From: a virus
Virus record (IMG/VR): IMGVR_UViG_3300043449_002510
Span: 1-64,000 of that record
Length of the DNA stretch: 64,000 bases
Strand: one strand, 5' to 3'
The position numbers and the translations under genes are program-made. The notes under the pieces were generated by a model that was not told where the DNA came from, searched no databases, and was given only the letters and a program-made list of their open reading frames with translations. Positions 1 through 22,865 of this stretch are shown here, in pieces (positions within the stretch are counted from its first letter, which is position 1; each line of letters opens with the position of its first letter).

Positions 1-332
1 TCGTCCCGCTTGGCCCACCAAGCCAGAATCTCTTCTGTCTCGTCCTTCTCCATATGAACGGCACGGGTGACAGTGGCGTTGCCTTCTTCCGTCACCGTCA
101 CCTCGTCCCAAGTGACAATGAACTTGACGAACAGTTCCTTGGGAATCAGGAAGTCGATGCCGTGACCTTCGACAATGACCTCGCCGCCCATCTCATAGAG
201 CCCCCAAGTATTCGCCCGATGCCCCTTCTCATAGGTGTGAGGACCAGACATGAAGTTTACCTTGTAGTCGCTGCCGAGAATGGCGACGTGTTTTTCGTTC
301 TTGATGACCGGAGCGTTCATTTCATTTTTCAT
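1..332 (-). CDS. Small hypothetical early protein (MKNEMNAPVIKNEKHVAILGSDYKV...), runs off the window start
   Basis: Open minus-strand frame from ATG at 332. A sigma70-like promoter TTGCTT-17-GATACT ends 6 nt upstream. Absent from the ORF track because it is truncated. Confidence 0.75.
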   Translation of the reverse strand, partial: MKNEMNAPVIKNEKHVAILGSDYKVNFMSGPHTYEKGHRANTWGLYEMGGEVIVEGHGIDFLIPKELFVKFIVTWDEVTVTEEGNATVTRAVHMEKDETEEILAWWAKRD

Positions 333-338
333 GTCCAA

Positions 339-390
339 AGTATCGGCTAAAGTTCACAAGGAAGCAAGAAGTTTTTTCGACTTTTTTCAG
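339..390 (-). promoter_or_regulatory. sigma70-type promoter with A-tract UP element, leaderless transcript
   Basis: -35 TTGCTT (367-362), 17 bp spacer, -10 GATACT (344-339), 6 nt to ATG, two A-tracts upstream. Confidence 0.75.
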
Positions 391-397
391 GTCATGA

Positions 398-606
398 AGC
401 AGGTCCTGTGCCAAGCAAGTTTCTTTTTGGGTTGGCACGGACCTTGCTTTGGGTTGCTTGTGTAAGTCGTTGAGTATCAACCACTTACAGGGCCCTCCCC
501 CCTACCCCCCACGTAAGTCCTTGATTATCAAGGGTTTACGTAAGCTTTGCGAACAGCAAAAAGCGTGCCACGTCAAGTTTTTTCTTGACTTGGCACAGAG
601 TGTGCT
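398..606. repeat. Regulatory module 1: sigma54 site pair / two IHF-like palindromes / sigma54 site pair
   Basis: TGGCAC-N5-[TGC]TGCT at 398-414(-), 432-448(+), 555-571(-), 590-606(+). Palindromes TAAG-N3-TTGA-N3-TCAA-N4-TTA at 463-487 and 514-538. Confidence 0.85.
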
Positions 607-613
607 AGGGAGC

Positions 614-808
614 CTACTCCCTATCGGCCACCGGGAACCACTTGCCGGTGTCGGGGTCCTGCTCCCACTCGCTGGAGTGGCGACTCTGGTAGCGGCTGTA
701 ACGCCGACGCGCAGAGTATTGCTGAAGCCCCTCTTGCCAAGTAAGCGGGCGAGGGGCGGGAGTCTGGTTGTTGCTGCTGCTGCTGTTGTTGTTGCTTTCG
801 TTTTGCAT
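614..808 (-). CDS. Small hypothetical protein, 64 aa (MQNESNNNSSSSNNQTPAPRPLTWQEG...)
   Basis: Start reassigned from the ORF track (1102) to ATG 808, which lies 6 nt below promoter TTGACC-17-TACTCT. Confidence 0.7.
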   Translation of the reverse strand: MQNESNNNSSSSNNQTPAPRPLTWQEGLQQYSARRRYSRYQSRHSSEWEQDPDTGKWFPVADRE

Positions 809-814
809 GTGTAA

Positions 815-900
815 AGAGTAGTTCAGGATTCGGCTTTGGTCAAGGATTTTTTTCAGATTTTTTTGTATTCTCCCACGGTCGCCAGCAGGAAGAATGCCAA
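815..900 (-). promoter_or_regulatory. sigma70-type promoter plus co-oriented upstream sigma54 motif
   Basis: -35 TTGACC (843-838), -10 TACTCT (820-815), A-tracts; TTGGCATTCTTCCTGCT at 900-884. Confidence 0.75.
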
Positions 901-929
901 CATGATGAGAATGAACATGGGCACAGTTT

Positions 930-1067
930 TTAGTTGCCCTTGTTAAGCTCTTCGCGAAGCTCGCACTCGGCGAGCCACTGTTGGTATTCCTCATGTTCTT
1001 CCGGCGTGAACTGCGCGAAGGAGTAGGTTTCGCTTTGCGGGTCAAGGTTGCTGTTCGTGTTTTGCAT
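930..1067 (-). CDS. Small acidic hypothetical protein, 45 aa (MQNTNSNLDPQSETYSFAQFTPEEHEEYQQWLAECE...)
   Basis: ATG 1067 lies 6 nt below promoter TTGCGT-17-GATACT. Confidence 0.7.
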   Translation of the reverse strand: MQNTNSNLDPQSETYSFAQFTPEEHEEYQQWLAECELREELNKGN

Positions 1068-1073
1068 GTAAGG

Positions 1074-1112
1074 AGTATCGTCTGAACTGCGCCCGGACGC
1101 AAGAGATTTTTC
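1074..1112 (-). promoter_or_regulatory. sigma70-type promoter, leaderless
   Basis: -35 TTGCGT (1102-1097), 17 bp spacer, -10 GATACT (1079-1074). Confidence 0.7.
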
Positions 1113-1141
1113 GCACTCTTCGAAAATTTTTTCCTTGACGG

Positions 1142-1340
1142 TTGGCACGCCAGGTGCTAGCTAGCAGGCTCCGTGCCAAGTGAGATTTTTTTTGGGTTGG
1201 CACAGGTCTTGTTTTTAGCGTGTGTAAGTCGTTGATTATCAACCACTTGTGGGGCCCCCCGCGTAAGTCGTTGATAGTCAAGCACTTACGTAAGCTGCTA
1301 AGAAACAGTGTGCCAACGGTAGCTTGGCACAGATTCTGCT
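1142..1340. repeat. Regulatory module 2: five sigma54 motifs and two IHF-like palindromes
   Basis: sigma54 motifs at 1142(+), 1163(-), 1197(+), 1300(-, degenerate), 1324(+); palindromes at 1225-1249 and 1264-1288. Confidence 0.85.
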
Positions 1341-1345
1341 ATCTT

Positions 1346-1606
1346 TTACCGGCGAGCCACTCGGCGGGGCTTGTCAAACTTTCCGGCCATGATGATGTCG
1401 AAACAACGCACCACGAACTCTTCGGCCTCTTCGTAAAGGTCCGTCCGGTCATCGCCTTCCTTGTCTTCGACGCTAAGGATTTCAACCTCGTCCCCTTCCT
1501 CTTCCCACTCGTCATCGGGACCGTTTTCAGCAGGAACAAGGGTAAAGGTGACGCGCATAACTTCGTAGATGTCCGGTCCGAGTTCGATGTAGAATTGTTT
1601 TTGCAT
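1346..1606 (-). CDS. Small very acidic hypothetical protein, 86 aa (MQKQFYIELGPDIYEVMRVTFTLVPAENGPDDEWEEEGDEVE...)
   Basis: ATG 1606 lies 6 nt below promoter TTGTGT-17-GATACT. The upstream extension in the ORF track crosses the repeat module. Confidence 0.75.
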   Translation of the reverse strand: MQKQFYIELGPDIYEVMRVTFTLVPAENGPDDEWEEEGDEVEILSVEDKEGDDRTDLYEEAEEFVVRCFDIIMAGKFDKPRRVARR

Positions 1607-1612
1607 GCCCAA

Positions 1613-1665
1613 AGTATCGTCGAGAGTTCGCATGGACACAAGGATTTTTTTCAGTTTTTTTTCAG
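1613..1665 (-). promoter_or_regulatory. sigma70-type promoter with UP element, leaderless
   Basis: -35 TTGTGT (1641-1636), 17 bp spacer, -10 GATACT (1618-1613), two A7-8 tracts. Confidence 0.7.
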
Positions 1666-1672
1666 AGGGTGA

Positions 1673-1955
1673 AGCATGTCCCATGCCAAGCGAGATTCTT
1701 TTTAGATTGGCACGGGTTTTGTTTTGGAACATTTGTAAGTCCTTGATTATCAAGCACTTAGGCGGGGGGCCCCATAACATGTTGATACTCAAGCACTTAC
1801 GTAAGCTTCTAACAAGTATCATGCCAACCGTGCCTTGGCACAAGAGCTGCTCCCCCAGCAGGTATCATGCCAAGCTTGCGTTGGCATAGAAACTGCTTCC
1901 CCTAGCAGAGAGTATGCCAAGCCCACTTTTTTGTGAGCTTGGCACGGAGGCTGCT
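1673..1955. repeat. Regulatory module 3: eight sigma54 motifs and two IHF-like palindromes
   Basis: sigma54 motifs at 1673(-), 1707(+), 1811(-), 1835(+), 1857(-), 1881(+), 1904(-), 1939(+); palindromes at 1736-1760 and 1775-1799. Confidence 0.85.
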
Positions 1956-1958
1956 AAC

Positions 1959-2207
1959 TTAGCGGGATTCCTCCCATGCGATGCGTGCGTTTCTAGCATC
2001 TTCCTCTGCGCGTTCGCGCAGGTAGTCCTGCTCCTCTTCCATCCACTCTTGCGCCACCTCATGGAGTTCGGGGTAGCTAACACCCTTGACGGTGACGCCT
2101 TCCAGCTCGAAGGCGTATTCGTCGACATCCCAAGTGACATCAACATAGAGGGTGCAGAGGACGTAGTCGCCTTCCTTGGTCTGGAGTTCAATCTTTTCTA
2201 GTTTCAT
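1959..2207 (-). CDS. Small acidic hypothetical protein, 82 aa
   Basis: ORF track. Promoter TTGCAC-16-TACACT (TG-extended -10) ends 7 nt upstream of the ATG. Confidence 0.8.
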   Translation of the reverse strand: MKLEKIELQTKEGDYVLCTLYVDVTWDVDEYAFELEGVTVKGVSYPELHEVAQEWMEEEQDYLRERAEEDARNARIAWEESR

Positions 2208-2214
2208 TGGAGAC

Positions 2215-2263
2215 AGTGTAGCACCCCGGAGAGAGAGTGCAAGAGATTTTTTTGTTTTTTTTG
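2215..2263 (-). promoter_or_regulatory. sigma70-type promoter with UP element, leaderless
   Basis: -35 TTGCAC (2242-2237), TGc-TACACT (-10 at 2220-2215), A-tracts. Confidence 0.7.
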
Positions 2264-2287
2264 AGATTTATTTGATTGACAAGCGGA

Positions 2288-2503
2288 TTAGTAGTCGTCA
2301 CAGAATGACTCCACTTTCTTGGCGCTGCATTCTTCGCCAATCTTTTTTGCGTCAGCGATTAGACCTTCAAAGTATTCGGCAACCGCGTCTTTGCCTTCAC
2401 TTCTGCAACGTTCAGCCGTTGCAATTAGCGCGCCACTAAGGCGAGCGATTGCGCTATGCATGTCCCAGAATTGCTTATCAGAGAGCTTGTAGCCTTCTTT
2501 CAT
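2288..2503 (-). CDS. Small hypothetical protein, 71 aa
   Basis: ORF track; co-oriented 30 nt downstream of the 2534-2752 gene. Confidence 0.7.
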   Translation of the reverse strand: MKEGYKLSDKQFWDMHSAIARLSGALIATAERCRSEGKDAVAEYFEGLIADAKKIGEECSAKKVESFCDDY

Positions 2504-2508
2504 AGTAT

Positions 2509-2534
2509 GTGTGTGTGTGTGTGTGTGTGTGTGT
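2509..2534. repeat. (GT)13 / (AC)13 microsatellite forming an intercistronic leader
   Basis: Direct reading. Confidence 0.95.
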
Positions 2535-2752
2535 TACCAGACCCGGGCAACGACCTTTTCATAGAGCCACTGCGGTTCAGTAGAGGTAAGCCACTCCAGC
2601 TCCCCTTCCGTCAATTCCCGGAAGGATTTGCCGTCTTCGCTCATGTAGATGCCAGCGGAAAAGTAGGCGTCCGAAAACTCGGGGGCGTCTTTGAAGTCGA
2701 TGCCGTCCACTTCAAGGTCTTTGATGCGTTTCCAATCTAGGTTGTATTTCAT
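2534..2752 (-). CDS. Small acidic phage hypothetical protein, 72 aa (MKYNLDWKRIKDLEVDGIDFKDAPEFSDAYFSAG...)
   Basis: ATG 2752 lies below promoter TTGCGC-17-GATACT (2796-2768). Confidence 0.75.
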   Translation of the reverse strand: MKYNLDWKRIKDLEVDGIDFKDAPEFSDAYFSAGIYMSEDGKSFRELTEGELEWLTSTEPQWLYEKVVARVW

Positions 2753-2767
2753 ATTTAAGATACCAAG

Positions 2768-2894
2768 AGTATCGGTGAGAGTTAGCTTGGGCGCAAGTTT
2801 TTTTTCAATTTTTTTTCGGAGGGGGAGAGCAGATGCCATGCCAACCACCCCCCATTTTTGAAAAAATTTTTTCGAGTTTGGCACGCGGGCTGCC
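2768..2894. promoter_or_regulatory. sigma70-type promoter (-) and last divergent sigma54 motif pair
   Basis: -10 at 2773-2768, -35 at 2796-2791; sigma54 motifs at 2828-2844(-) and 2878-2894(+). Confidence 0.7.
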
Positions 2895-2940
2895 GGGGGG
2901 GCTTATATATGAGTCTCCCCAAATAAATTAAACCAAACAT

Positions 2941-2964
2941 AATAATAATAATAATAATAATAAT
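2941..2964. repeat. (AAT)8 microsatellite at the GC-rich/AT-rich junction
   Basis: Direct reading. Confidence 0.9.
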
Positions 2965-3139
2965 ATAAAATAATAATTAAATACTATATCTCTTTATACC
3001 TCCCCCTATTTCCCAAAAAAGTTAAAGAAATTAAAATAAATTAAAATTAACGAGGCTAAAAAAATCCCGGGACCCCTTTTTTCCTAGACTATTTTCTTGC
3101 AAAGTGTAAAATAATATAGGCACAGGTTAACAAATCTTA

Positions 3140-3886
3140 ATGAAAAAAAATAAAAAAAACAAAAATATCGATAAATCTCCATATGTTCATCAAGACGAAA
3201 AGTTAAAAGGCAAACTCCAATTTAAAAATAAAATTCAATGGACAGAAAAACAAAGAAAATTCCTTGAATTAGCCTCTAACAAAGACACTAAAGTTATTTT
3301 TGTAAAAGGGCCTGCTGGCTCTAGCAAGTCTATTCTTACAGTTTTTGCCGCGCTTCAAATGTTAGACGATAAAAAAGTATCAGAAGTGATGTATATCCGT
3401 TCTGCTGTTGAAAGCTCTGAGTCTAAAATAGGCTATCTCCCCGGCACAAATGATGAAAAAATGATGTATTACAATTTACCTTTCATGGAAAAATTAAGCG
3501 AACTTCTTTATAGTCCCGACATTGAAATGCTTAAAAAAGAAGAGCGGGTAACTTGTTTTTCAACAAATTTCGCTCGTGGCATGAGCTGGAATGCCAAAGC
3601 TATTATAATGGACGAAACCCAAAACTCGTCCCGTAAAGAAATTATTACCATTTTAACCAGAATAGGGCAGTTTTCTAGATGTTTTGTACTTGCCGACCCT
3701 CTTCAAACAGACCTTACCAATGGTAAATGCGGCGGATTTGAAGAATTATTTCAACTTTTTAACAATCAAGAAGGGCGCGATAATGGTATTTATACTTTTG
3801 AGTTTACTGAAGAAGACATTATGCGCTCCGAACTTGTAAAATATATAGTTAAAAGAGTGGGGCAGCTCCCAATTAAGAAAATTTAA
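3140..3886 (+). CDS. phoH: PhoH-family ATPase
   Basis: GPAGSSKS Walker A, IGYLPG, ARGMSW, IIMDETQN, LTRIG, D..QTDL, DIMRS motifs. Confidence 0.92.
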   Translation: MKKNKKNKNIDKSPYVHQDEKLKGKLQFKNKIQWTEKQRKFLELASNKDTKVIFVKGPAGSSKSILTVFAALQMLDDKKVSEVMYIRSAVESSESKIGYLPGTNDEKMMYYNLPFMEKLSELLYSPDIEMLKKEERVTCFSTNFARGMSWNAKAIIMDETQNSSRKEIITILTRIGQFSRCFVLADPLQTDLTNGKCGGFEELFQLFNNQEGRDNGIYTFEFTEEDIMRSELVKYIVKRVGQLPIKKI

Positions 3887-4322
3887 TTTTATTAATTAAT
3901 TCTTCTTTATTATATATTCTAGGATTGCCATTTTTAACTAATAAAAGATATTTAATTTTATCTTCATTTGTTTCTTTGATAAATTTTAAAGTATCTTCCC
4001 ATTTTCGACAAGCTACAAAATCAAGACTAACCGCATTGTAATTAGGGTTAGGCTCCTTATAAGCATTTTTTATTAATTCATTATTAATATCTTTTGGATC
4101 TTCTATGAAAATATGATTCCATAGAACAAAAACATAATCATCGCAATAAAAATATCCTTTATACCTTTTTATTTGATTATAAAATGTCTCTATTGCTTCT
4201 TGCAAATTGTTTTCCCTTATTAAAAATTGACTATCTGGATAATATTTTATTAATAATTTTTGACAATTAACAAAAAAATCGACTTTTTCTTCGATTGATA
4301 AAGAATTAAAAAGTTTTTTCAT
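3873..4322 (-). CDS. Hypothetical protein, 149 aa
   Basis: Fills the gap between plus-strand genes; a long ORF in AT-rich DNA. Confidence 0.7.
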   Translation of the reverse strand: MKKLFNSLSIEEKVDFFVNCQKLLIKYYPDSQFLIRENNLQEAIETFYNQIKRYKGYFYCDDYVFVLWNHIFIEDPKDINNELIKNAYKEPNPNYNAVSLDFVACRKWEDTLKFIKETNEDKIKYLLLVKNGNPRIYNKEELINKIKFS

Positions 4323-4377
4323 AAAAGTGTAAATTATTTAATGTATTACGGTCTTTTTATTATAAAATAATTTAAAT

Positions 4378-4812
4378 ATGAACATCAAAAATAAATATTG
4401 TCATAATTGCGGAATTAAATTGGTTTCAACCGCAAAATTTTGCACAGACTGCGGAACTTCACAAGCTTCACTTTCTGCAAAGCCGCCGCAGCCCGAAGAA
4501 TCAGCACCTAGACCCTTACAAAAAAATTTACAAAGACCTCAAAATACTTTTACACCAGTTTCAAACATCGACGATGATGACGAAGATAGTTATATAGATC
4601 ATATTGATCATTTGGAAGTTTCTATTTCTTCTCTTGATGTTGATTTTGGTAGATCAAATTCTAGAAAAGAAACAGTTGGTCAATTAATGAACGAAGGTTC
4701 AGCTTTGCCTCCAAATGCCGAAAACTTTACAAGAGCTAATCCTGCTGCGGTAGATGAAAAAGCATTCTTAGAGCAATTTAGAAATGAAGCTGGCACATTA
4801 AGAAACAAATAA
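4378..4812 (+). CDS. Zinc-ribbon domain protein
   Basis: N-terminal YCHNCG...AKFCTDCG. Confidence 0.75.
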   Translation: MNIKNKYCHNCGIKLVSTAKFCTDCGTSQASLSAKPPQPEESAPRPLQKNLQRPQNTFTPVSNIDDDDEDSYIDHIDHLEVSISSLDVDFGRSNSRKETVGQLMNEGSALPPNAENFTRANPAAVDEKAFLEQFRNEAGTLRNK

Positions 4813-4813
4813 A

Positions 4814-5494
4814 ATGTCCAAAATTAAACGCCCAAAATTTGAAGACTGTTTAGATTTAATAAATATAGAAATAAATAAAAGAAAATCAAAATGGAATTTG
4901 TCTTCCATTGCTTGGATGGACTTTGATGATGTTTCTCAAATTATTAGATTTCATATACATCAAAAGTGGAAGCAATACAATCCTGAAAAACCATTACAAC
5001 CATGGGTTAGCATAATAATAACTAATCAGTTAAGAAATTTAATAAGAAATCATTATACAAATTATGCTAGACCATGTTTAAGATGTGATGCCGCTATTGA
5101 TAGTGATGGTTGCAAAATTTATAAAGAACAATGCGAATCTTGTCCACTTTATTCTCATTGGAAAAAACATAAACAACCTGCTACTTTTGTAAAACTTCCC
5201 GTTTCAATAGAAAATCACAATTATGAAGTTCATAGCATAGAAGACAATCATTCATATGGAGCAGAAGATATTCAAAAACTTCATGATATAATGAAAAAAA
5301 TATTAAAACCAATAGAATATCAAGTTTACAAAGGTTTATATATTGACCATTTGGATGAAGCTGCCGTTGCTAAAAAATTAGGTTTTATTTCAAATGAAAA
5401 AGGAAGGTCTCCCGGCTATAGACAAATTAAAAATATAACTAAATCAATAATCATAAAAGCAAAAACTTATATAGAAAAAGAAGGTTTAGATTAA
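4814..5494 (+). CDS. Phage RNA polymerase sigma factor (sigma70/ECF-like), probable late sigma
   Basis: Region 2-like DFDDVSQIIRFHIHQKWKQYNPEKPLQPWVSIIITNQLRNLIR; region 4-like LKPIEYQVY...VAKKLG; Cys-rich insert. Confidence 0.75.
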   Translation: MSKIKRPKFEDCLDLINIEINKRKSKWNLSSIAWMDFDDVSQIIRFHIHQKWKQYNPEKPLQPWVSIIITNQLRNLIRNHYTNYARPCLRCDAAIDSDGCKIYKEQCESCPLYSHWKKHKQPATFVKLPVSIENHNYEVHSIEDNHSYGAEDIQKLHDIMKKILKPIEYQVYKGLYIDHLDEAAVAKKLGFISNEKGRSPGYRQIKNITKSIIIKAKTYIEKEGLD

Positions 5495-5495
5495 T

Positions 5496-6602
5496 ATGGA
5501 AACTCCAAAAGAATTAGAGCTAACTCCAGAACAAGAAAAACAAATGCTAGATCTTTGGAATAAAAATCCAAGTTCTCCCCCAGGATTAAAAGAAATTACG
5601 AAAGAAATTTTTGGTGGCGATTTTGACGGCAGAAGCGCTCAAGGAAGAGCGGTAAAAAAATCATTGTTAAAATTTAATCTTCGAGCAAAAGCAACAAGCG
5701 ATTATACTCCTAAAACGGCGGAATTTCAATTAACAGAAGATCAGAAACAATTTATTATTAATAATGTTTCTACAATGAATTCTTTAGAGATTTCAAAAAT
5801 TCTTTTTCAAAATCCAACCCTCACTAATTTAAATGTTGAAACTCGTGCTGTAAATGATTTTGTAAAAACTCTAGATACAAAAGTTGTTTACAATCAAAGT
5901 CAAAATGAAGATATTCCAACCGAGGATTATCAGCCGCCTGCTACCTTAGAAAAAGTATTAAGAAGAGTTAATAAATATGTTAATTGCAATTTAGATAAAG
6001 AAAAACTCAATAATAATCAAAAAAAAGGATTAGAGGCCTTAATTAACTATCTTCATACATTTAGATTCATCAAACAAATGAATACTTATGATAGTCAAGA
6101 TGATAGAACCCTTTGTGAAGATGCTTTTATTCGTTATACTTACGATAAACCAGATTTAAATCAAGAAGAGGTAGATCAATATATTGAACTTTCTAATCAA
6201 GTTGTTCAAGGATTTAAAGTTCTCAGAAGAAGTGAAAGAATGCAATTCGCGCTTGAACAAATCACCGGTAATGACCCAGAAACAATGAAGGTTTCTATGG
6301 GTCTTGTAGAAGCAATTGGAAAAGCTAGTACTGAATACGATCAATGTATTAAACGCCAACAAAAATTATTAGAAGATTTAAAAGAAAAAAGAAGTACAAG
6401 ACTTTCAAAACAAATAAAAGAAACCGCATCCATTTTAAATCTTGTTCAACTATGGCGAGACGAAGAGGAACGGATAAAGATGATAAAATATGCTGAGATT
6501 GAACAACAAGCCATAGCTCAAGAAGTTGAAAAATTAACTAGTATGGATGAAATAAAAGCTAGAATATTTGGATTAGATAAAAATGAAATTCTAAATGGCT
6601 AA
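5496..6602 (+). CDS. Hypothetical helical protein, possible terminase small subunit
   Basis: HTH-like N-terminus and coiled-coil C-terminus; overlaps the next gene upstream of terL. Confidence 0.4.
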   Translation: METPKELELTPEQEKQMLDLWNKNPSSPPGLKEITKEIFGGDFDGRSAQGRAVKKSLLKFNLRAKATSDYTPKTAEFQLTEDQKQFIINNVSTMNSLEISKILFQNPTLTNLNVETRAVNDFVKTLDTKVVYNQSQNEDIPTEDYQPPATLEKVLRRVNKYVNCNLDKEKLNNNQKKGLEALINYLHTFRFIKQMNTYDSQDDRTLCEDAFIRYTYDKPDLNQEEVDQYIELSNQVVQGFKVLRRSERMQFALEQITGNDPETMKVSMGLVEAIGKASTEYDQCIKRQQKLLEDLKEKRSTRLSKQIKETASILNLVQLWRDEEERIKMIKYAEIEQQAIAQEVEKLTSMDEIKARIFGLDKNEILNG

Positions 6603-7524
6603 TATGGAAGTTATATGCAAGATTTGTCAATTAAAGTTTGATAGCGATTTATCTTTCCATGCCCATTTAAAATCTCATAAAATTAGACAGGCTGAATATT
6701 ATCAAACTCATTATCCTAGATATGATAAATTTGATAAATCAATTATAAAATTTAAAAATAAAGAACAATATTTTAATACTGAGTTTAATTCAAGATTATC
6801 TTTTAAAAATTGGATTTTATCTGCTTCTTCAATAATTGCAGAATCTTATTCAAAAGAAGTTCTTTTAAAAAGAAAAGAAAAAGGCAAAATAAAATTTGCT
6901 CCCACTCAAGTTGAACTAAAAACAATGATGATGCCGGGAATTAAATTTATTAACGAAAAAATAAAAAATTATAATAACTTTTGTAAAGAGTTGGGGCTTG
7001 AAATTAAATTCTCAAAAGAATCTTTAAATGAAAATAATTTTAAAAATATAACTAATAAATATATTTTTACAGATTCGAGAGAACAAAAAGCTTTGGAGTT
7101 TGATAATCGTACAAGAGTCAAGGGTATGTCTTTTGGTGATTATAGAATGAAAGATTCTTCTATTTATATAGAAAGAAAATCAATAAATGATGCTTGGGGA
7201 ACTTTAACTGGAGGATATGAAAGATTTGAAAAGGAAATTATTAGAGCGAAAGAAGCTGAAGGTTATTTAGTTATTTTAGTTGAAGGTCCGTTTAATGAAT
7301 TAGAAAAATTTCCGACTCAAAGACAAGTTTATGGAAAAATTAAAATTCCTGTAGAATTTTTATATCATAATATTAGAGAGCTTTGTCAAAAATATAATCA
7401 TATTCAATTTTTATTTGTTAAAAATAGAGAAGAAGCAAGTAGAGTTATACAAAAAATTTTTGCAGCTGACGAACAAGTTAAAGATGTTGATCTTCAATAT
7501 CTTTACGACATAGGAAAATTATAA
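6595..7524 (+). CDS. C2H2 zinc finger + ERCC4/XPF-type nuclease
   Basis: CKIC..HLKSH; DSREQ, GDY and IERKS..D motifs. Confidence 0.8.
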   Translation: MANMEVICKICQLKFDSDLSFHAHLKSHKIRQAEYYQTHYPRYDKFDKSIIKFKNKEQYFNTEFNSRLSFKNWILSASSIIAESYSKEVLLKRKEKGKIKFAPTQVELKTMMMPGIKFINEKIKNYNNFCKELGLEIKFSKESLNENNFKNITNKYIFTDSREQKALEFDNRTRVKGMSFGDYRMKDSSIYIERKSINDAWGTLTGGYERFEKEIIRAKEAEGYLVILVEGPFNELEKFPTQRQVYGKIKIPVEFLYHNIRELCQKYNHIQFLFVKNREEASRVIQKIFAADEQVKDVDLQYLYDIGKL

Positions 7525-9368
7525 TGTGGTATAGTCCTCCTAAATACGAAAAAAATATAATAGATGTAAATAAAGATTTTTTAAATCTAAAGGGTGAGCT
7601 TGACGAAAAACAAGCTAGAATAACTTTAGCAAAATTTCTTTATAGAAATATTGGCTTTACGACAGAGCTTTTAACAGGAATAAAACTTTATCCAGATCAA
7701 GTTATCAACATCAAAGGAATGTTGAACAGCAACTATACTATGTGTGTTTGGGGACGTGGTTTAGGAAAAACATTTTCAGCGGCAATGTTTTGTATTTTAC
7801 AAAGTATATTCTTTCCAAAGTCAAAAATTCTTATAGCTGGCCCCACATTTAGAACTGCGCGTTTTATATTCAATTATATTGAAAAAACTTGTGATAGCCC
7901 TGGGGCTCAAATGTTATTTCAAGCAATGGGAGTTAAATCAAAGAGAAATGATGAATTTAGATGGAATATTAATGGTGGAGAAATCGTCGCGATCCCTCTT
8001 AATGGAGAAAAGATTCGTGGTTTTCGTGCGAATGTACTTGTTATTGATGAATTTCTTTTAATGAGCGAAGATATCGTGGAGAAAGTTTTAATGCCATTCC
8101 TTTTAGCTCCACAAGATATTGATGAAAGACAAAGAATACGCAGAAAAGAAGATGAATTAATTAGAAGGGGTCTTTTAAAAGAAGAGGATAAAATGAAATT
8201 TCCTAATAAGGCAAAATTCATTGGACTTTCTTCCGCCAGCTATACTTGCGAATTTTTATATAAAAAATATGACGAATTCATAAAAAAAATATATGATCCA
8301 AGTATGCCAGAAACTGGAGAAAAATATTTTATTAGTCAGTTAGCTTGGAATGCTATTCCAGAAGATCGTATAGATAAATCAATTATTGAATTAGCGAGTA
8401 GTAATGAATCTAATCAAGCAACTTTCAAACGCGAATATGGCGCTCAATTTATTGATGGTTCTGATAGTTATTTTTCAATGAAGAAAATGTTGGAATGTTC
8501 AGTTCCAGATGGTGAATCTCCTTCTATACAAATTAAAGGAGAAAAAGATAAAAAATATATTTTAGCAATTGATCCAAACTTTTCCAATTCTCCTACTGCC
8601 GACCATTTTGCAATGTGTTTAATAGAAATGGATGAAGATCCAAATAAAATTTCTGGAACAGTTATCCATAATTATGCAAAAGCAGGAAAAGATTTAAAAG
8701 ATCATATTAAATATTTTTATTATTTAATAAAAAATTTTAATATAGAAATGATTATTATTGATTATGCTGGTTATCAATTCATTGAATCAGCTAATGAAAG
8801 CGAATGGTTTAAAAAAGATAAAATAGAAATTAAAATTTTTGAATTTTATGCAGAAAAAGACGGATCTGAATTAGAAGATCAATTAAAAAATGCAAGAAGG
8901 CTTTATAATAAAGAAATTAATAGAATTGCTTTTACTCAATATTTTACTACTGACTTTATTAGAAAAGGTAACGAATGGTTGCAAGGATCTATCGATTATA
9001 AAAAAATATGGTTTGGCTCTAATATAAAAGCCGATGCTTCAACTTTTGATAAAGCAATATCTACAGAGATGGGAGAAGATTTAAAATTGGTTGATGAAGA
9101 TTCCTTGGGAGATTTAATAGATGAACAAGAAGTTTTAATGAGGCAAACAAAATATCAATGCGCGTCTATAGAAGTAAAATCTACGGCAAAAGGTACTCAA
9201 AGCTTTGATCTTCCACAAATCATGAAAAGAGATCATTCTGCCAACAGAATGAGAAGAGATAGTTATACTGCCTTAATGTTGGGTTGTTGGGGAATGAAGT
9301 GCTATAAAGACATTACCAAAGTCACTGAAAATGATTCTCAATCGACATTTGAACCTATTTTTCTTTAA
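7524..9368 (+). CDS. terL: Terminase large subunit
   Basis: GRGLGKT Walker A, IRGFRANVLVIDE Walker B, FKREYGAQF, RNase H-like ILAIDP, RDSYTAL. Confidence 0.92.
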   Translation: MWYSPPKYEKNIIDVNKDFLNLKGELDEKQARITLAKFLYRNIGFTTELLTGIKLYPDQVINIKGMLNSNYTMCVWGRGLGKTFSAAMFCILQSIFFPKSKILIAGPTFRTARFIFNYIEKTCDSPGAQMLFQAMGVKSKRNDEFRWNINGGEIVAIPLNGEKIRGFRANVLVIDEFLLMSEDIVEKVLMPFLLAPQDIDERQRIRRKEDELIRRGLLKEEDKMKFPNKAKFIGLSSASYTCEFLYKKYDEFIKKIYDPSMPETGEKYFISQLAWNAIPEDRIDKSIIELASSNESNQATFKREYGAQFIDGSDSYFSMKKMLECSVPDGESPSIQIKGEKDKKYILAIDPNFSNSPTADHFAMCLIEMDEDPNKISGTVIHNYAKAGKDLKDHIKYFYYLIKNFNIEMIIIDYAGYQFIESANESEWFKKDKIEIKIFEFYAEKDGSELEDQLKNARRLYNKEINRIAFTQYFTTDFIRKGNEWLQGSIDYKKIWFGSNIKADASTFDKAISTEMGEDLKLVDEDSLGDLIDEQEVLMRQTKYQCASIEVKSTAKGTQSFDLPQIMKRDHSANRMRRDSYTALMLGCWGMKCYKDITKVTENDSQSTFEPIFL

Positions 9369-9418
9369 AAAGTGTATTTACACATAAATTAATATAATAA
9401 ATTGGACTAAGGAATCAA

Positions 9419-11863
9419 ATGGATAGTTTAATTAGATTAAATCAAATTTATCAACCAGAATTATCTGGATACATTGCCAGTATAGTAAATTCTTTGTTGA
9501 CTTTTAACACTTCTGGTGATATAATTCCTTCTGGATCTGGAATAAAAAATCTCGGATCCGAAACGAATTATTATAAAAATCTTTATGTTAATGGAATTTC
9601 CGTCCCTTCTGGTAGTGGAATTACAATTGGAAATACTTTCTTTACTGCTTATTCTTCTGGCGGAGCAGGAATAGTTCAAGTTGGTGATTATAAAATAACT
9701 TCTTCTGGAAATTTTATTTCTATTCAAGGACCACAAGGTATTCAAGGTCCAACTGGCGCAACTGGAGAAAAAGGAGCAACGGGAATAGGAATAACTGGCG
9801 TTAATTATAATCAATTAAATTATGAATTAACTTTTAATTTATCAAATAATACAAATCAAATAGTCAATATTCCTCCATTAAGTGGAGCAACTGGAATTAG
9901 TATAACTGGTTTTTATAAAAGTGGTAATTTCATTTATCCTCAATTTGATAATTTTAAAGGAATTGGAGAGGCTATAGAATTACCGAGTGGGGCGCAAGGG
10001 ATTCAAGGTGCCCCGGGGACAGTCACTTTATATTTTAATTCTGGAACAGGATTAAATTCAGGTTCTTTTTCCGAGGTTGAGTTTCCTAAATTTGTACAAA
10101 TAAAAGAATATTATACTGAAGATCCATATCCTCCAATTTCTTTGATGAGAGGAATGTCTTATACATTTAATTCTTCTGGATTGTATACTCATCAAATAAC
10201 TGAATTAGATTATATATTAATAACTGGAATTTTAAATAATCCAAATGTGCCAATTGATATAATTGGCTCTTTAGTAAATTATTATTCTGACCCACTAAAC
10301 GGAACTGGATATTGGAGGGTTTCTTTTTTCGATTCTGGAGCTGCAACTGGAATATATAGCGGCTTGTACGATAGTGAAACAGGATTTTTTAACGCGATAT
10401 CTGGGAAAAATAATGAAATATATGGAAGCGATTTCTATACTGACATCTATAGAACTTCATTAACTTTTAATACAAAATTCACAGCAAAAGATCAATACAA
10501 ATATGGTTTCGTTGTTTATTCATTAGGAGAATTAGGGGATGAGGCATTAAACAACGGATCAATTGAAGGTTCCAAATCGATAGCTATAATTGTTGGTGAC
10601 ACTTATGTTTCTTCTGGAGTTGGACCTAGAGGCCCAATTGGACCTCAAGGCACAGAAGGTCCTCCGGGAACTGGAGTGGGTCCAAAAGGAGACCCAGGAG
10701 CCGGAATTATAGCTATAAATCAAGGAGATTTTCAAATACAATTTGTTTTTGCGGACGATACTGTTTCCGACTGGATTAATTTGCCTCAAGGTGGTCCTTC
10801 TGGCGCACAAGGCCCACCGGGATCTTTAATAAATTATTTCAGTGGAGAATACTCTTCAAATATTATTTATAAGTTGAACGACACAGTATCTAGACTTGGT
10901 TCTACATACATATATACAGGTTCATCTCCTCAATCTGGATACATTCCAGAGAATGGAATTAATTGGCAATTACTTGCAAAAAGTGGAGAAAAAGGTCAAA
11001 CAGGCGCGACTGGAGAAAGAGGAATTGCTGATAAGTATAGTTCAAGTTTTAATGTAGTTTCTGGATTTCCGACTGGAATTGAAAGTTATCAATTCAATAT
11101 AACTGGGATTACGGTTGATGGAGTATCTCTTAGTGGAACTGGAGCTATTTTTAAAGTTGGACAAAAAATTTCATTTAAAAACTCTGGAATAAATGGATAT
11201 TCTTATACTCCATATCAAAACATAGTCGTTTCTTCAAACTCTATTAATAATTCATATTTTTATGGATCTATTAATAACTACAATTCTAATAGTGGAATTA
11301 TTAGTTTTACAGTGCTTTCTGGAGGAACTGGAATAATTAATTCTACAATATCTGGAGATTATTATTTATGGTACAATTATCAACATTCTACCATTAATTT
11401 AGGGGCTAATTTAATGAGTGGGGCAGTTGGTCCACAAGGTCCAATTGGCCCCCAAGGTCCAGCTGGAAATCCATCTTTATTAAGAAACTCTGGAATTTTA
11501 TATTTAGATCGCAATGTGGGAGGAAATTTTATTTTAAATCCTTCTGGTTTTGATGTATTTAATATTACAATAACTGGAGATGATACCGCTGGAAACACTC
11601 CGATAGGAATTGATTTTGATTGGGATTATTTTCAAACTGGAAAATGCGTTTTAGTTAGAATAAGAAATAGTGGTATTTCTAATGGAAACATTGATCCTCC
11701 TTTATTTTATTTTACGGGAGTAAATGGAGCTTCAATAAAATGGCCGGGTGAAATTTATACTAGACCTAATAGTGGAGAATTTTATATTTATTCAATATTA
11801 AGGTTTATGGACGAAGACGATCAATCTTTATGTTTTGGAACTTATTCTAATCCATATAAATAA
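9419..11863 (+). CDS. Collagen-like repeat virion fibre with possible CBM5/12-like module
   Basis: Several Gly-X-Y blocks; YSSNIIYKLNDTVSRLGSTYIY...WQLLA. Confidence 0.7.
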   Translation: MDSLIRLNQIYQPELSGYIASIVNSLLTFNTSGDIIPSGSGIKNLGSETNYYKNLYVNGISVPSGSGITIGNTFFTAYSSGGAGIVQVGDYKITSSGNFISIQGPQGIQGPTGATGEKGATGIGITGVNYNQLNYELTFNLSNNTNQIVNIPPLSGATGISITGFYKSGNFIYPQFDNFKGIGEAIELPSGAQGIQGAPGTVTLYFNSGTGLNSGSFSEVEFPKFVQIKEYYTEDPYPPISLMRGMSYTFNSSGLYTHQITELDYILITGILNNPNVPIDIIGSLVNYYSDPLNGTGYWRVSFFDSGAATGIYSGLYDSETGFFNAISGKNNEIYGSDFYTDIYRTSLTFNTKFTAKDQYKYGFVVYSLGELGDEALNNGSIEGSKSIAIIVGDTYVSSGVGPRGPIGPQGTEGPPGTGVGPKGDPGAGIIAINQGDFQIQFVFADDTVSDWINLPQGGPSGAQGPPGSLINYFSGEYSSNIIYKLNDTVSRLGSTYIYTGSSPQSGYIPENGINWQLLAKSGEKGQTGATGERGIADKYSSSFNVVSGFPTGIESYQFNITGITVDGVSLSGTGAIFKVGQKISFKNSGINGYSYTPYQNIVVSSNSINNSYFYGSINNYNSNSGIISFTVLSGGTGIINSTISGDYYLWYNYQHSTINLGANLMSGAVGPQGPIGPQGPAGNPSLLRNSGILYLDRNVGGNFILNPSGFDVFNITITGDDTAGNTPIGIDFDWDYFQTGKCVLVRIRNSGISNGNIDPPLFYFTGVNGASIKWPGEIYTRPNSGEFYIYSILRFMDEDDQSLCFGTYSNPYK

Positions 11864-11871
11864 TAAAATTT

Positions 11872-14739: not shown

Positions 14740-14771
14740 TAATTTAATATTAATTAGTGTATTTATAAAAA

Positions 14772-17546: not shown

Positions 17547-17550
17547 TAAT

Positions 17551-19395: not shown

Positions 19396-19425
19396 TTTAA
19401 ATTTTAAGTGTAATTATATTAAATT

Positions 19426-20961: not shown

Positions 20962-20990
20962 AAAACAAACAAAAAACAAGGAGATAAATT

Positions 20991-21548: not shown

Positions 21549-21575
21549 TTTAAATAAAAATAAAGGAGACAATTT

Positions 21576-22766: not shown

Positions 22767-22787
22767 TTATAAAATTAAAACATCGAC

Positions 22788-22819
22788 AAACGGGGAGCCT
22801 AAAAACTCCCCGTTTTTTT
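22788..22819 (+). terminator. Rho-independent terminator
   Basis: AAACGGGGAG-cctaaaaa-CTCCCCGTTTTTTT. Confidence 0.9.
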
Positions 22820-22865
22820 ATTTTCATTTTAAACAAAAACAACTATAATAAATAAAGGATAAAAT

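Follow-up and report, generated by a model that had tools for sequence, protein, structure and literature searches.

A lattice of sigma-54-type -24/-12 sites in the early-gene arm of an uncultured freshwater phage, tentatively read as activator-gated sense and antisense promoters

A 2.9-kb arm of about 50% GC at the left end of a 124-kb phage record of about 30% GC carries 20 sites which, judged by their sequence, are probably genuine recognition sites of the sigma-54 (RpoN) -24/-12 type. The source is an uncultured freshwater phage with a genome of roughly 150 kb; the window was a stretch of 64,000 nucleotides of this record. The array is tentatively read as the visible part of a regulatory lattice in an early-gene arm, in which host sigma-54 sites would act as activator-gated sense and antisense promoters. 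Many other uncultured phages carry similar arrays. No description of such an element was found in the literature searched, in line with the original remark that no described phage element of this kind was known.

Site array and motif

The strict pattern TGGCAYNNNNNNTGC (TGGCAY-N6-TGC) was matched 18 times in the 64-kb window, with 0.60 matches expected (sd 0.74, largest 3), and none of 100 shuffles reached 18, so that the excess was confirmed against shuffled controls. Sixteen of the 18 matches were located within 399-2893. Beyond the arm, the whole record contained only two further strict sites, 46440(-) and 48505(+), with none past 48.5 kb, and a reversed-pattern control gave no match in the whole record. 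Allowing T[GTC][CT] at the -12 triplet added 1198(+), 1301(-), 1708(+) and 1812(-), resulting in a total of 20. Strict and relaxed scans confirmed the proposed positions, ten per strand in the order -,+,-,+; the earlier coordinates were one base further left because the flanking T had been counted in. All 20 sites are intergenic:

399-413, minus: TGGCACAGGACCTGC; faces gene 1 with its GC 66 nt upstream of the ATG (332); forms a back-to-back pair with 433(+)
433-447, plus: TGGCACGGACCTTGC; faces palindrome unit 1; predicted start at about 459, unit begins at 461-464
556-570, minus: TGGCACGCTTTTTGC; right-hand site facing palindrome unit 1; forms a back-to-back pair with 591(+)
591-605, plus: TGGCACAGAGTGTGC; faces into minus-strand gene 2, with 8 nt between its end and the stop codon (614-616)
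885-899, minus: TGGCATTCTTCCTGC; unpaired; GC 76 nt before the gene 2 ATG (808)
1143-1157, plus: TGGCACGCCAGGTGC; face-to-face with 1164-1178(-), 6 nt between both TGC ends
1164-1178, minus: TGGCACGGAGCCTGC; faces gene 3 with its GC 96 nt upstream of the ATG (1067)
1198-1212, plus: TGGCACAGGTCTTGT; TGT at -12; faces palindrome unit 2
1301-1315, minus: TGGCACACTGTTTCT; TCT at -12, the weakest such element; right-hand site facing palindrome unit 2
1325-1339, plus: TGGCACAGATTCTGC; ends 6 nt before the gene 4 stop codon (1346-1348); faces into gene 4
1674-1688, minus: TGGCATGGGACATGC; faces gene 4, GC 67 nt before the ATG at 1606
1708-1722, plus: TGGCACGGGTTTTGT; TGT at -12; faces palindrome unit 3
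1812-1826, minus: TGGCATGATACTTGT; TGT at -12; right-hand site facing palindrome unit 3
1836-1850, plus: TGGCACAAGAGCTGC; first of three pairs with a repeat period of 46-47 bp
1858-1872, minus: TGGCATGATACCTGC; face-to-face with 1836(+), back-to-back (N7 gap) with 1882(+)
1882-1896, plus: TGGCATAGAAACTGC
1905-1919, minus: TGGCATACTCTCTGC
1940-1954, plus: TGGCACGGAGGCTGC; ends 4 nt before the gene 5 stop codon (1959-1961)
2829-2843, minus: TGGCATGGCATCTGC; faces gene 7, GC 76 nt before the ATG at 2752
2879-2893, plus: TGGCACGCGGGCTGC; last site, at the GC/AT boundary; co-oriented with a PhoH-like ORF at 3140

Strict alternation held in the window because the sites are arranged in pairs, either back-to-back (TGCCAA-N7..18-TTGGCA) or face-to-face (TGC-N6/7-GCA); site 1164-1178(-) belongs to one pair of each type. 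Alternation was not kept in relatives, where locus L015 has co-oriented sites in runs of five, spaced by 26-28 bp, and locus L029 contains tandem pairs. The claim that plus-strand sites lack a co-oriented gene downstream stood for nine of ten and failed for 2879(+), which precedes the PhoH-like ORF. The spacers had been described as differing in almost every copy; the six-base spacers after TGGCA-Y were in fact distinct in all 20 sites. Among 22 TGGCAY words in 408-2884, 20 had a -12 element at the fixed distance.

Assignment to the sigma-54 consensus was supported by positions that had not been selected for and by the invariant internal spacing. Among the 464 distinct strict sites collected from the window and 77 viral loci, T preceded TGGCA in 87% and a purine followed Y in 96% (G in 68%), while T preceded TGC in 60% and followed it in 86%, giving TTGGCAYR-N4-TTGCT. 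17-mers from E. coli sigma-54 sites mapped by ChIP-seq are of like form (PMC4591121). TGGCAY-N6-TGC was found 625 times, compared to 2-29 times for other spacings in the range N2-N11. Paired patterns in IMG/VR gave 0 and 0 stretches with N7, and 77 and at least 119 with N6. The distance between sites varied from 3 to 20 bp; that within sites did not vary.

Selection on the bipartite site, likewise predicted, was evident from 766 site alignments between relatives: TGGCA and TGC showed 5-6% mismatches and the flanking T 9-10%, whereas spacer and flanks differed at 20-35%. A strain variant in one run differed in site 399-413 at four spacer bases and at the Y position (C to T), with GC and TGCCA kept. 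A loss of the GC at the -12 spacing in relatives had been named as evidence for a different binder; homologous arrays keep the GC there.

Genes, promoter modules and palindromes of the arm

Seven small genes were predicted in the arm:

3-332, minus: gene 1; 110 aa in the window, 3' end at or just past the contig start; no family match
614-808, minus: gene 2; 64 aa; no family match
930-1067, minus: gene 3; 45 aa; weak DUF4880 match below cut-off (E 0.014)
1346-1606, minus: gene 4, acidic; 86 aa; no family match
1959-2207, minus: gene 5; 82 aa; no family match
2288-2503, minus: gene 6; 71 aa; weak DUF3853 match below cut-off (E 0.041)
2534-2752, minus: gene 7; 72 aa; no family match

Relatives in other arms were found for gene 3 alone (L024, L050, L055, L076; 56% identity over 32 aa). 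Promoter-like modules and A-tracts were located as follows:

339-368, minus: cTTGCTT-N17-GATACT; gene 1 ATG 6 nt after GATACT
815-843, minus: TTGACC-N17-TACTCT; 6 nt before the gene 2 ATG; read by eye
1074-1103, minus: cTTGCGT-N17-GATACT; 6 nt before the gene 3 ATG
1613-1642, minus: cTTGTGT-N17-GATACT; 6 nt before the gene 4 ATG
2215-2242, minus: TTGCAC-N16-TACACT; 7 nt before the gene 5 ATG; read by eye
2768-2797, minus: cTTGCGC-N17-GATACT; 15 nt before the gene 7 ATG
372-391, minus: double A-tract A6-N4-A6 between sigma-54 site and -35-like element; further copies at 849-868, 1647-1666, 2247-2266 and 2801-2820

Since the gene 1 ATG lies only 6 nt past GATACT, its mRNA would be leaderless; leaderless promoter modules of the same kind were found in L029. 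Sigma70 promoters had been proposed for most small genes. The recurrent module cTTGnn-N17-GATACT supports them (five matches with 0.03 expected, four preceding genes), but a generic consensus scan does not call them.

Three palindrome units lie between inward-facing sites:

461-541, unstranded: unit 1; inverted repeats at 464-486 and 515-537, each 23-27 bp long and built as AAGTssTTGA-N3-TCAAssACTT, split by a G/C-rich spacer; at about -88/-139 of the minus site at 413 and -142/-91 of 591(+)
1223-1290, unstranded: unit 2; repeats 1226-1248 and 1265-1287, spacer GGGGCCCC; at about -85/-124 of the minus site at 1178 and -114/-75 of 1325(+)
1734-1801, unstranded: unit 3; repeats 1737-1759 and 1776-1798; at about -86/-125 of the minus site at 1688 and -114/-75 of 1836(+)

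Six palindromes were present in the window, with 0.09 expected. The predicted start of all six inward-facing sites falls within about 4 nt of a palindrome edge, and the offset of 14-15 nt to that edge was also found in L029 and L041. A search of 401 genomes from a single phylum did not recover the palindrome, and therefore there was no sign of a copied host enhancer.

Arrays in other phages and at the contig end

A search of related phage contigs, as had been suggested, identified a GC-rich arm with such sites in 23 of 77 viral loci. These share a block of PhoH, a sigma-like gene, genes for 368 aa and 309 aa, and TerL (about 53-60% identical), with the site cluster beyond PhoH. Five related records contained 29, 33, 16, 28 and 37 strict sites with no control match in any. 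Across 161 loci, in which at least two sites per locus are present by selection, 1039 sites were counted against 15 control matches. The motif occurs in phage lineages of 29-66% GC without detectable shared genes in the fetched loci. An unrelated phage (60% GC, 95% complete) carries a 13-site lattice at its ends, adjoining the first gene; its nearest isolates are Caulobacter phages, and the sigma-54 DNA-binding domain was present in Caulobacter in a control search. A location on first-injected DNA was not borne out, as a complete relative with terminal repeats has its cluster at 161-166 kb of 231 kb.

In the phage under study, a contig joint 1956->1 was found in three runs, two of which seem to be a single data set deposited twice. 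This joint would place a copy of the 1940(+) site immediately left of window base 1. None of the runs that carry the stretch is an RNA run. The array runs on past the contig end, and its visible part is truncated by the contig.

Possible functions of the lattice

We infer sigma-54 binding, an enhancer role of the palindromes, and firing in two directions. Host sigma-54 holoenzyme would occupy the sites as closed complexes. Inward-facing sites bracket four of five short early transcription units, presumably leaderless and with their own sigma70-type modules, and also each pair of 23-27-bp palindromes. The palindrome pairs precede the outward-facing sites by about 75-142 bp, with A/T tracts in the interval, which is how enhancers for sigma-54 activators are arranged. 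The sites may act as activator-gated promoters and would be served by a host enhancer-binding protein, because the phages encode none: the activator domain PF00158 was found in 0 of 13 phage records, including four with a completeness of 91% or more, and a tblastn search with six bacterial activators against 161 loci and the record itself gave no match. On firing, leadered sense RNA would start upstream and run across the leaderless promoter of the early units, and antisense RNA would start at early-unit stop codons; both outputs could form a temporal or physiological switch for early genes. If sigma-54 binds, the 30-40 sites per replicating genome should also soak up scarce host sigma factor.

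Several observations argue against promoters. Face-to-face sites 6-7 bp apart could hardly hold two holoenzymes at once, and the strong preference for pairs is needless for simple promoters. In E. coli the majority of sigma-54 sites are transcriptionally inactive (PMC4591121). No gene lies in the direction of half of the sites, the genes are already provided with promoter modules of their own, relatives contain sites within ORFs (L015, 7720 and 7768), and the phage records lack an activator. In a crude test across loci, unpaired intergenic sites showed no orientation bias (21 co-oriented, 25 opposed).

A pure sigma-54 sponge is a live, if unlikely, rival to the promoter reading: 30-40 replicated consensus sites per genome would bind host sigma-54, free or as holoenzyme, and titrate the scarce factor without ever being fired. 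The cell content of sigma-54 is low. Sigma-54-dependent host responses would then be shut down, or core polymerase shifted to a phage sigma factor, and a sigma70_r2-type phage factor is encoded beside the arrays in 50 of 161 loci. The missing activator genes and the sites within ORFs fit this explanation, as do the packing of one site per 22-28 bp, with both orientations and tandem runs represented, which is denser than promoter-using holoenzymes could exploit, and the presence of 29-37 sites in 5-14 kb compared to 135 mapped in the whole E. coli genome (PMC4591121). However, fixed pair geometry, strict intergenic placement in the window, stop-codon abutment, A/T tracts and paired palindromes are not needed by a pure decoy. 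Phages usually disable sigma factors with small proteins. None of the roles originally proposed (decoy, RNA polymerase reservoir or scaffold) was established; a regulatory architecture suits the geometry better than a plain decoy, because the sites in the window are only intergenic, plus-strand sites end 4-8 nt before stop codons of minus-strand genes, and paired palindromes lie at about -75 to -142 of the outward-facing sites.

It is distinctly unlikely that a phage-encoded or host dimeric protein binds the inverted pairs, polymerising head-to-head and tail-to-tail, with the likeness to sigma-54 being coincidence or mimicry. Partners at a distance of up to 70 bp exist for about four fifths of the sites (449 of 551), with preferred gaps of N7 back-to-back (61 cases) and N6/7 face-to-face (76 cases); a small protein would fit the face-to-face geometry better than two holoenzymes, and a conserved sigma-like gene is close by. 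Against such a binder, 102 of 551 sites are unpaired, co-oriented tandem runs exist, four unselected positions match the sigma-54 consensus, and the distance is invariant only within sites. The sigma-54 DNA-binding domain was found in 0 of 13 phage records, and the motif recurs in lineages of 29-66% GC whose fetched loci share no detectable genes. Established promoter geometry does not allow a sigma70-family factor to span two elements that lie only 6 bp from each other.

Closed sigma-54 complexes at gene ends could also serve as insulators or roadblocks that stop read-through between tightly spaced early units without ordinary terminators, which is considered quite improbable. Inward-facing sites bracket four of five transcription units, and a terminator scan gave seven matches, not above chance (4.3 expected). 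Under sigma-54 overexpression in E. coli, though, only three of 85 genes with internal sites were down, and the authors regarded a roadblock as unlikely (PMC4591121); the palindromes would be left unexplained.

Very improbable is the production of small structured RNAs of about 80-95 nt, each with two hairpins, from the palindrome units by sigma-54 promoters, acting on either strand or on both, with the remaining lattice being secondary. The predicted starts at the unit edges and the shared offset in L029 and L041 fit this proposal, and on both strands the folding of the units is better than that of shuffled sequences (z-scores -2.6 to -7.0). Yet folding shows no strand preference, Rfam gave no match, and L041 reads the same unit sequence from opposite sides. 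The central SS pair differs between halves (CG vs GC) in most palindromes, and therefore the stem is broken; this difference is kept in L029 and L041.

That the array is an artefact, either a chimeric contig or a functionless, recently spread repeat, is scarcely credible: GC drops from about 50% to about 30% at 2,900-2,940 beside an (ATA)n run, depth in one run falls from about 270-300 on the left of 2,930 to about 55-125 on its right, and no listed Logan contig bridges 2929-3002, but the GC-rich site-bearing arm adjoins the same PhoH, sigma-like and terminase block in 23 independent assemblies, and 20 distinct spacers around a kept core are the opposite of a recent repeat burst.

Sigma-54-type sites of the arm

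The source record was a 124,148-bp IMG/VR virus classed as linear and about 81% complete, and the window represents its first 64 kb. The GC content was 46-52% over the first 2.9 kb (termed the arm) versus 25-42% across the remainder of the record. With the strict sigma-54-type (-24/-12) pattern TGGCAYNNNNNNTGC, 18 matches were obtained in the window versus 0.60 expected, and 16 of them were located within 399-2893. Relaxation of the -12 element (TGT or TCT) added four sites in the arm. These 16 strict and four relaxed sites, whose two elements keep the fixed distance that is the criterion for sigma-54 sites (GG and GC exactly ten bases apart), are exactly the 20 sites of the original prediction. 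Its further claims of ten sites per strand and alternating orientation were borne out, and the spacer differs in every site. Two strict sites were located elsewhere in the record, and a reversed control pattern gave no match in the record.

Seven small ORFs (genes 1-7) were found in the arm, all on the minus strand, and all 20 sites are placed between them. A family search with these ORFs gave no matches, and ten representative arm-gene families yielded no DNA-binding or sigma-related family in Pfam. The 45-aa product of gene 3 (930-1067, minus strand) showed a weak match below the cut-off (E 0.014) to DUF4880, which is entered in the family search result as a domain of unknown function and which we take to be the N-terminal anti-sigma domain of FecR-like proteins. 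Among the arm genes, gene 3 alone had relatives in the arms of other phages (viral loci L024, L050, L055 and L076); gene 1 had no relative among the viral contigs searched. Rfam analysis of 1-3200 resulted in a single microRNA match (E 0.42) and nothing else, and a look-up of RNA runs containing 1-3200 returned none.

For base counts, 464 distinct strict sites were pooled from 77 viral loci and the window. At positions not forced by the pattern, T preceded TGGCA in 87% of the sites, a purine followed Y in 96% (G in 68%), and T was present before TGC in 60% and after TGC in 86%. The resulting consensus TTGGCAYR-N4-TTGCT matches, at the sequence level, the sigma-54 consensus YTGGCACGrNNNTTGCW reportedly given by Barrios and co-workers in 1999. 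In the 20 sites of the window, T precedes TGC throughout by construction of the patterns, and the base preceding that T is mostly C. The sigma-54 motifs derived from E. coli ChIP-seq are of the same form as the phage consensus in the available text of Bonocora et al. (2015; PMC4591121).

The spacing within sites was conserved, with an N6 spacer in 625 sites versus 2-29 sites at any other spacer from N2 to N11 (748,511 nt). Paired patterns with N6 retrieved 77 back-to-back and at least 119 face-to-face stretches from IMG/VR; when each site of the pair was lengthened by one internal base (N7), neither arrangement was retrieved. Between relatives, the mismatch rate was 5-6% for TGGCA and TGC, 9-10% for the flanking T and 20-35% for the spacer and the surrounding positions. 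These values were taken from 766 site alignments, after removal of duplicates, within HSPs that were at least 150 bp long and 70-96% identical; some of the alignments may pair paralogous copies. Loss of the GC at the -12 spacing in relatives, which the original prediction had named as speaking against sigma-54, was not observed: the N6 spacing was invariant, and TGC was kept. In a strain variant of site 399-413 from sequencing run X4, four spacer bases and the Y position were altered, and GC and TGCCA were unchanged. A total of 1039 strict sites versus 15 control matches was counted in 161 loci (1.46 Mb) that had been picked for containing a pair and partly overlap on the same contigs. Judged from these sequence comparisons, selection acts on the array motif, which is the sigma-54 consensus.

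Two decayed site copies, TTTGGCGCGAAAATTGTTT and TTTGGTATGAAAATTGTTT, were detected in viral locus L015 (7480-7525) downstream of five tandem consensus sites. The second is nearly identical to the E. coli ChIP-seq sigma-54 site TTGGTATGAAAATTGTA printed in the available text of PMC4591121.

The arm in related phages

IMG/VR was searched for back-to-back pairs using the pattern AGCA-N6-RTGCCAA-N6..22-TTGGCAY-N6-TGCT, resulting in the 77 stretches. In 23 of these, the pair lay 1-3 kb past a PhoH-like gene, in a stretch of locally raised GC content. The PhoH-like gene was followed, as in the window, by a sigma70_r2-like gene, genes for proteins of 368 and 309 aa, and the large terminase gene. The proteins of this shared block were 38-65% identical to those of the window. 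A search of related phage contigs for the same array, as had been proposed with the prediction, was successful, and strict sites were abundant in five related records: G408 (29 in 5 kb), G409 (33 in 13.7 kb), G410 (16 in 2.7 kb), G411 (28 in 10 kb) and G412 (37, 36 of them in 13 kb). The control pattern gave no match in any of the five. In two more distant large phages, the sites were grouped in one small-gene region (11 of 12 in G001, 7 of 10 in G002). The genome of G002 is complete and has terminal repeats; the cluster lies at 161-166 kb of 231 kb, away from its ends.

A chimeric contig had been considered on account of the GC jump and a step in depth, and because none of the Logan contigs listed spans 2929-3002. 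A chimeric join was excluded as the source of the arm because the same gene block lies beside GC-rich, site-bearing DNA in the 23 loci. The composition boundary at 2895-3000 is sharp (about 50% GC to the left, about 30% to the right) and is marked by a G run, an (ATA)n microsatellite and AT-rich low-complexity DNA, with 2940-2964 among the stretches concerned. A (GT)15 microsatellite is located at 2505-2534 between genes 7 and 6. In G412, GC-richness was confined to the intergenic modules, and the small genes were AT-rich. The contig depth in run X1 was approximately 270-300 over 1-2930 versus 55-125 over 3000-6000; only DNA contigs were available, and depth was not counted as evidence. The step could result from a terminal repeat, from GC bias or from an arm common to several strains.

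The arm was covered by Logan contigs of freshwater metagenomes. A contig joint from 1956 to 1 was present in three runs, of which X2 and X3 resemble one data set filed twice. This joint places a copy of the plus-strand site at 1940 after gene 1, immediately beyond the left end of the contig; assembly has therefore truncated the array. The first 40 bases of the window, used for a left extension of the arm, had no match in the metagenome contigs searched. Two variant joints were also observed. One, from 1298 to 1904, skips 605 bases and was found in three runs, two of them resembling one data set filed twice; the other, from 2262 to 2895, skips genes 6-7 and was of low depth. Both show arm variants differing in module number.

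Site pairs, palindromes and putative promoters

Distinct neighbour pairs were classified by orientation. The back-to-back form TGCCAA-N7-TTGGCA occurred 61 times; gaps of N5, N6 and N8 were represented as well, and another set of back-to-back pairs had gaps of N13-18. Face-to-face pairs (TGC-N6/7-GCA) occurred 76 times. A tandem arrangement at 25-28 bp was also preferred. Since about a fifth of the sites (102 of 551) were unpaired, the single asymmetric site is regarded as the unit and the pairs as a higher-order arrangement.

A palindrome, AAGTssTTGA-N3-TCAAssACTT (23-27 bp), was present in six copies in the window versus 0.09 expected. The copies form three two-palindrome units, located relative to genes and sites as follows.

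461-541: palindrome unit 1
1223-1290: palindrome unit 2
1734-1801: palindrome unit 3
413, 1178, 1688, 899 and 2843, minus strand: sites 66-96 nt before the ATG of genes 1, 3, 4, 2 and 7, respectively
591, 1325 and 1940, plus strand: sites ending 8, 6 and 4 nt before the stops of genes 2, 4 and 5, respectively, and pointing into those genes

In the window, a back-to-back site pair stands on either side of every unit. The inner sites point at the unit, and their predicted start (12 nt past GC) falls within about 4 nt of the unit edge in all six cases. The outer sites point away from the unit, with the palindromes at about -75 to -142 of these six outward sites and A/T tracts between. As a result of the placement of outer sites at gene starts and stops, four of the five transcription units are bracketed by inward-facing sites. 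Half of the minus-strand sites of the window (5 of 10) lie 66-96 nt ahead of an ATG; one of the ten plus-strand sites has a co-oriented ORF, and three face palindrome units. Across loci, 21 unpaired intergenic sites were co-oriented with and 25 opposed to genes, and ATGs were in modest excess 100-130 nt downstream of sites (67 versus 27), both being weak statistics from crude ORF calls.

Palindrome pairs were conserved in viral loci L029, L041, L047, L068 and L081, and in L029 and L041 the palindrome starts 14-15 nt past GC. Each intergenic module of L068 (record G412) opens with a stop codon and a back-to-back pair; GGGGCCCC-palindrome-GGGGCCCC and then A/T tracts come next, and a face-to-face pair followed by a promoter-like region leads up to the ATG. 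The palindrome occurred once across five genomes searched and in none of 401 genomes in the phylum of the Saprospiraceae MAG G003.

A putative promoter module, cTTGnn-N17-GATACT, was matched five times versus 0.03 expected, and four of the matches were located ahead of genes 1, 3, 4 and 7. The corresponding modules are TTGACC-N17-TACTCT for gene 2 and TTGCAC-N16-TACACT for gene 5. Double A-tracts are present directly upstream of the modules. None of them was called by a generic sigma70 consensus scan, because the -35 element fits only three of six positions. In five genes the ATG follows the -10-like element by only 6-7 nt, so leaderless mRNAs are expected. The same arrangement was found in L029. 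In the AT-rich part, a Shine-Dalgarno-like word was detected in only 20 of 92 large ORFs. The sequence AGTGTAAwTATA is located 10-16 nt before the ATG of structural-region genes (3103, 4326, 19407, 23235, 26342, 41185, 43281, 45505, 47115 and 51069) and was not over-represented genome-wide (25 versus 43 in shuffles). From the leaderless modules, the few Shine-Dalgarno words and the proximity of AGTGTAAwTATA to ATGs, short or absent leaders seem to be the rule for this phage. AGTGTAAwTATA may mark a class of promoters that the sigma-like factor of the phage itself reads and that give very short leaders.

Candidate binding factors and function of the array

Neither PF00158 (Sigma54_activat) nor PF04552 (Sigma54_DBD) was found in 13 site-bearing phage records, four of which are at least 91% complete. 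Six bacterial activators employed as tblastn queries gave no match in the 161 loci and the phage's own record. The gene commonest near arrays (50 of 161 loci; 36 of 79 in the first set and 14 of 82 in the second) encodes a 226-aa sigma70_r2-type factor with a four-cysteine insert; in the first set, 0.6-5.7 kb separate the gene from the closest site. Its copy in the window is located at 4814-5494 (plus strand, 226 aa). Sigma70_r2 was recognised in all 14 aligned relatives (best E 7e-7), and C88, C91, C107 and C110, between region 2 and the C-terminal part, were invariant or nearly so. The protein looks like a zinc-ribbon-bearing phage sigma factor. As reader of the array motif it was ruled out on geometry, because the sigma70 family cannot read elements only 6 bp apart; AGTGTAAwTATA is the likelier putative target.

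In the unrelated phage record G413 (about 60% GC, 95% complete), 13 of the 14 sites form a face-to-face lattice that occupies the two ends of the contig, by the first gene. Such a distribution points to sigma-54, a host factor shared by many bacteria. Locus L070 of G413 showed only a distant likeness to Caulobacter phages; Caulobacter, the control of the PF04552 search, carries the sigma-54 DNA-binding domain. Three TAGTGAGTACTCACTA-type palindromes are located upstream of the G413 lattice (L070 12,740-13,079; L028 1-330), and others occupy the interval from the last site to the first gene.

Tentatively, the lattice is read as a set of activator-gated sigma-54 promoters, which may well be correct. 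Host sigma-54 holoenzyme would sit on the sites as closed complexes, and a host enhancer-binding protein on the palindromes would activate the outward sites, possibly the inward ones too. Transcripts made in this way would cross the leaderless promoters from upstream and enter genes from their stop codons, and the early genes would thereby be switched by time or host state. Early-gene control would then be tied through the enhancer-binding protein to host physiology (nitrogen state, envelope stress, RNA damage). Enhancer-dependent sigma-54 promoters are exemplified by glnAp2 with NtrC and pspA with PspF. The phage sites resemble these in the GG and GC elements one helical turn apart at invariant spacing, in the match to the extended consensus, and in the paired inverted repeats, putative enhancers, that precede the outward-facing sites by about 75-142 bp, A/T tracts lying in the interval. 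They differ in density (20 sites in 2.5 kb, 29-37 per related arm), in back-to-back and face-to-face pairing, in that half of them aim at gene ends or palindromes, in the lack of an activator gene in the phages, and in that the phage genes have putative sigma70-type leaderless promoters of their own.

The main doubts about the promoter reading are that face-to-face sites can hardly both hold holoenzyme, that no activator was found, that unpaired sites have no orientation bias, and that some sites are located inside ORFs. The E. coli genome comprises about 4.6 Mb. According to the available text of Bonocora et al. (2015; PMC4591121), 135 mapped sigma-54 sites are scattered over it, and intragenic and antisense sites bind holoenzyme and are mostly transcriptionally silent. 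Silence of most E. coli sites in that text also counts against the promoter reading. Those sites share with the phage sites a consensus match without obvious promoter use and a frequent aim away from genes (PMC4591121, available text), and differ from them in that the phage sites are clustered, paired, intergenic and conserved as an array.

It is possible, if unlikely, that the arm assembles host sigma-54, as holoenzyme or free, into a regular lattice of back-to-back and face-to-face pairs around every early gene without a canonical activator. The lattice would either disable sigma-54-dependent host responses or be freed by a non-AAA+ phage factor as an activator-independent switch. Such a strategy would be common to a widespread clade of uncultured freshwater phages and to unrelated lineages. 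A pure sigma-54 sponge, a DNA-based means of disabling a sigma factor, would account for the site density and the missing activator, but the regular placement of the sites does not fit and this explanation is unlikely. That another binding protein reads the sites would agree with their pairing; the consensus match, the unpaired and tandem sites and the spread across lineages make it decidedly doubtful. Roadblocks are very unlikely in the light of the E. coli data (PMC4591121, available text). Small RNAs from the palindrome units are highly improbable given the conserved, non-complementary centre of the palindrome halves, and an artefact is given practically no weight.

The arm was also compared with other known systems. 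In the SPO1 terminal-redundancy module and the T5 pre-early region, which belong to large virulent phages, many very small genes, each with a strong promoter, are located at one genome end. The phage arm is likewise a terminal block of very small genes of unknown function with their own putative promoters. To our knowledge, only host sigma-A/sigma70 promoters and neither sigma-54 sites nor a composition jump have been described for these host-takeover regions, whereas the phage arm has both sigma-54-type sites and a composition jump. Promoter islands are dense clusters of sigma70 promoter-like sequences in DNA that E. coli gained by horizontal transfer, and they give rise to little productive transcription. 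The lattice would resemble them as a crowd of overlapping putative polymerase-binding signals in short foreign DNA, but it involves a different sigma factor, far better consensus matches, regular pairs and conservation across phage lineages. Iteron, centromere and terminase-binding arrays (plasmid origins, sopC, lambda cosB) consist of short repeated protein-binding sites. The phage sites are also short, repeated, present in both orientations and near a genome end and terminase genes. Unlike those arrays, they are spread over 5-14 kb between nearly all small genes rather than at one compact locus, have the sigma-54 consensus, and cluster off the genome ends in the complete relative G002.

Sigma-54 is normally viewed as a host factor for a small, tightly gated gene set. 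In an abundant uncultured freshwater phage clade, 16-37 consensus sites per early-gene arm were found in fixed pair geometry with no activator gene of its own, and the same kind of array was present in at least one unrelated lineage. The author of the original prediction knew of no described phage element of this kind; likewise, a full-text literature search, at the level of titles and abstracts, retrieved no report of phage sigma-54 site arrays. Sigma-54 sites, enhancer-like repeats and small early genes are already known as separate parts. New is their combination: tens of consensus sites, a back-to-back and face-to-face lattice and the enclosed, putatively leaderless early genes. Further new features are the location in an arm of shifted composition, the conservation throughout an uncultured clade, the reappearance in a separate lineage and the missing phage activator. 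Whether the sites act as promoters or as a sponge, the arrays are a sequence signature for spotting such phages, hint that their hosts carry rpoN, and offer a small natural collection of sigma-54 sites, differing in their spacers, on which holoenzyme binding and crowding can be studied.

No isolated phage with similar DNA was found for 1-3000 (distant mode), for 3000-23000 (near mode) or for viral loci L077 and L166. The large terminase of the window phage was at best 24-26% identical to those of isolates, which were phages of Firmicutes and Microcystis. Phage RW had no array (6 weak matches in its terminal repeats versus 3 control matches). None of 80 loci from genome contigs had a protein in common with the phage, and the site-richer ones, L150 and L151, were not arrays between small genes. 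At the right end of the record (124,074-124,145; L261 1075-1146), a few bases from its terminus, an Rfam tRNA match was obtained (40.4 bits, E 8e-7); it was not called by ARAGORN, which gave no other tRNA in the window or in 64,001-124,000. A replication and metabolism block is located on the minus strand at 84,725-111,371 of the record and encodes a DnaE-type polymerase III alpha subunit, a DnaB helicase, a PD-(D/E)XK nuclease, a GDP-mannose 4,6-dehydratase, a second epimerase/dehydratase and an IMPDH/GMP-reductase-like protein. The GDP-mannose dehydratase, used as an Atlas query, retrieved viral clusters for the most part.
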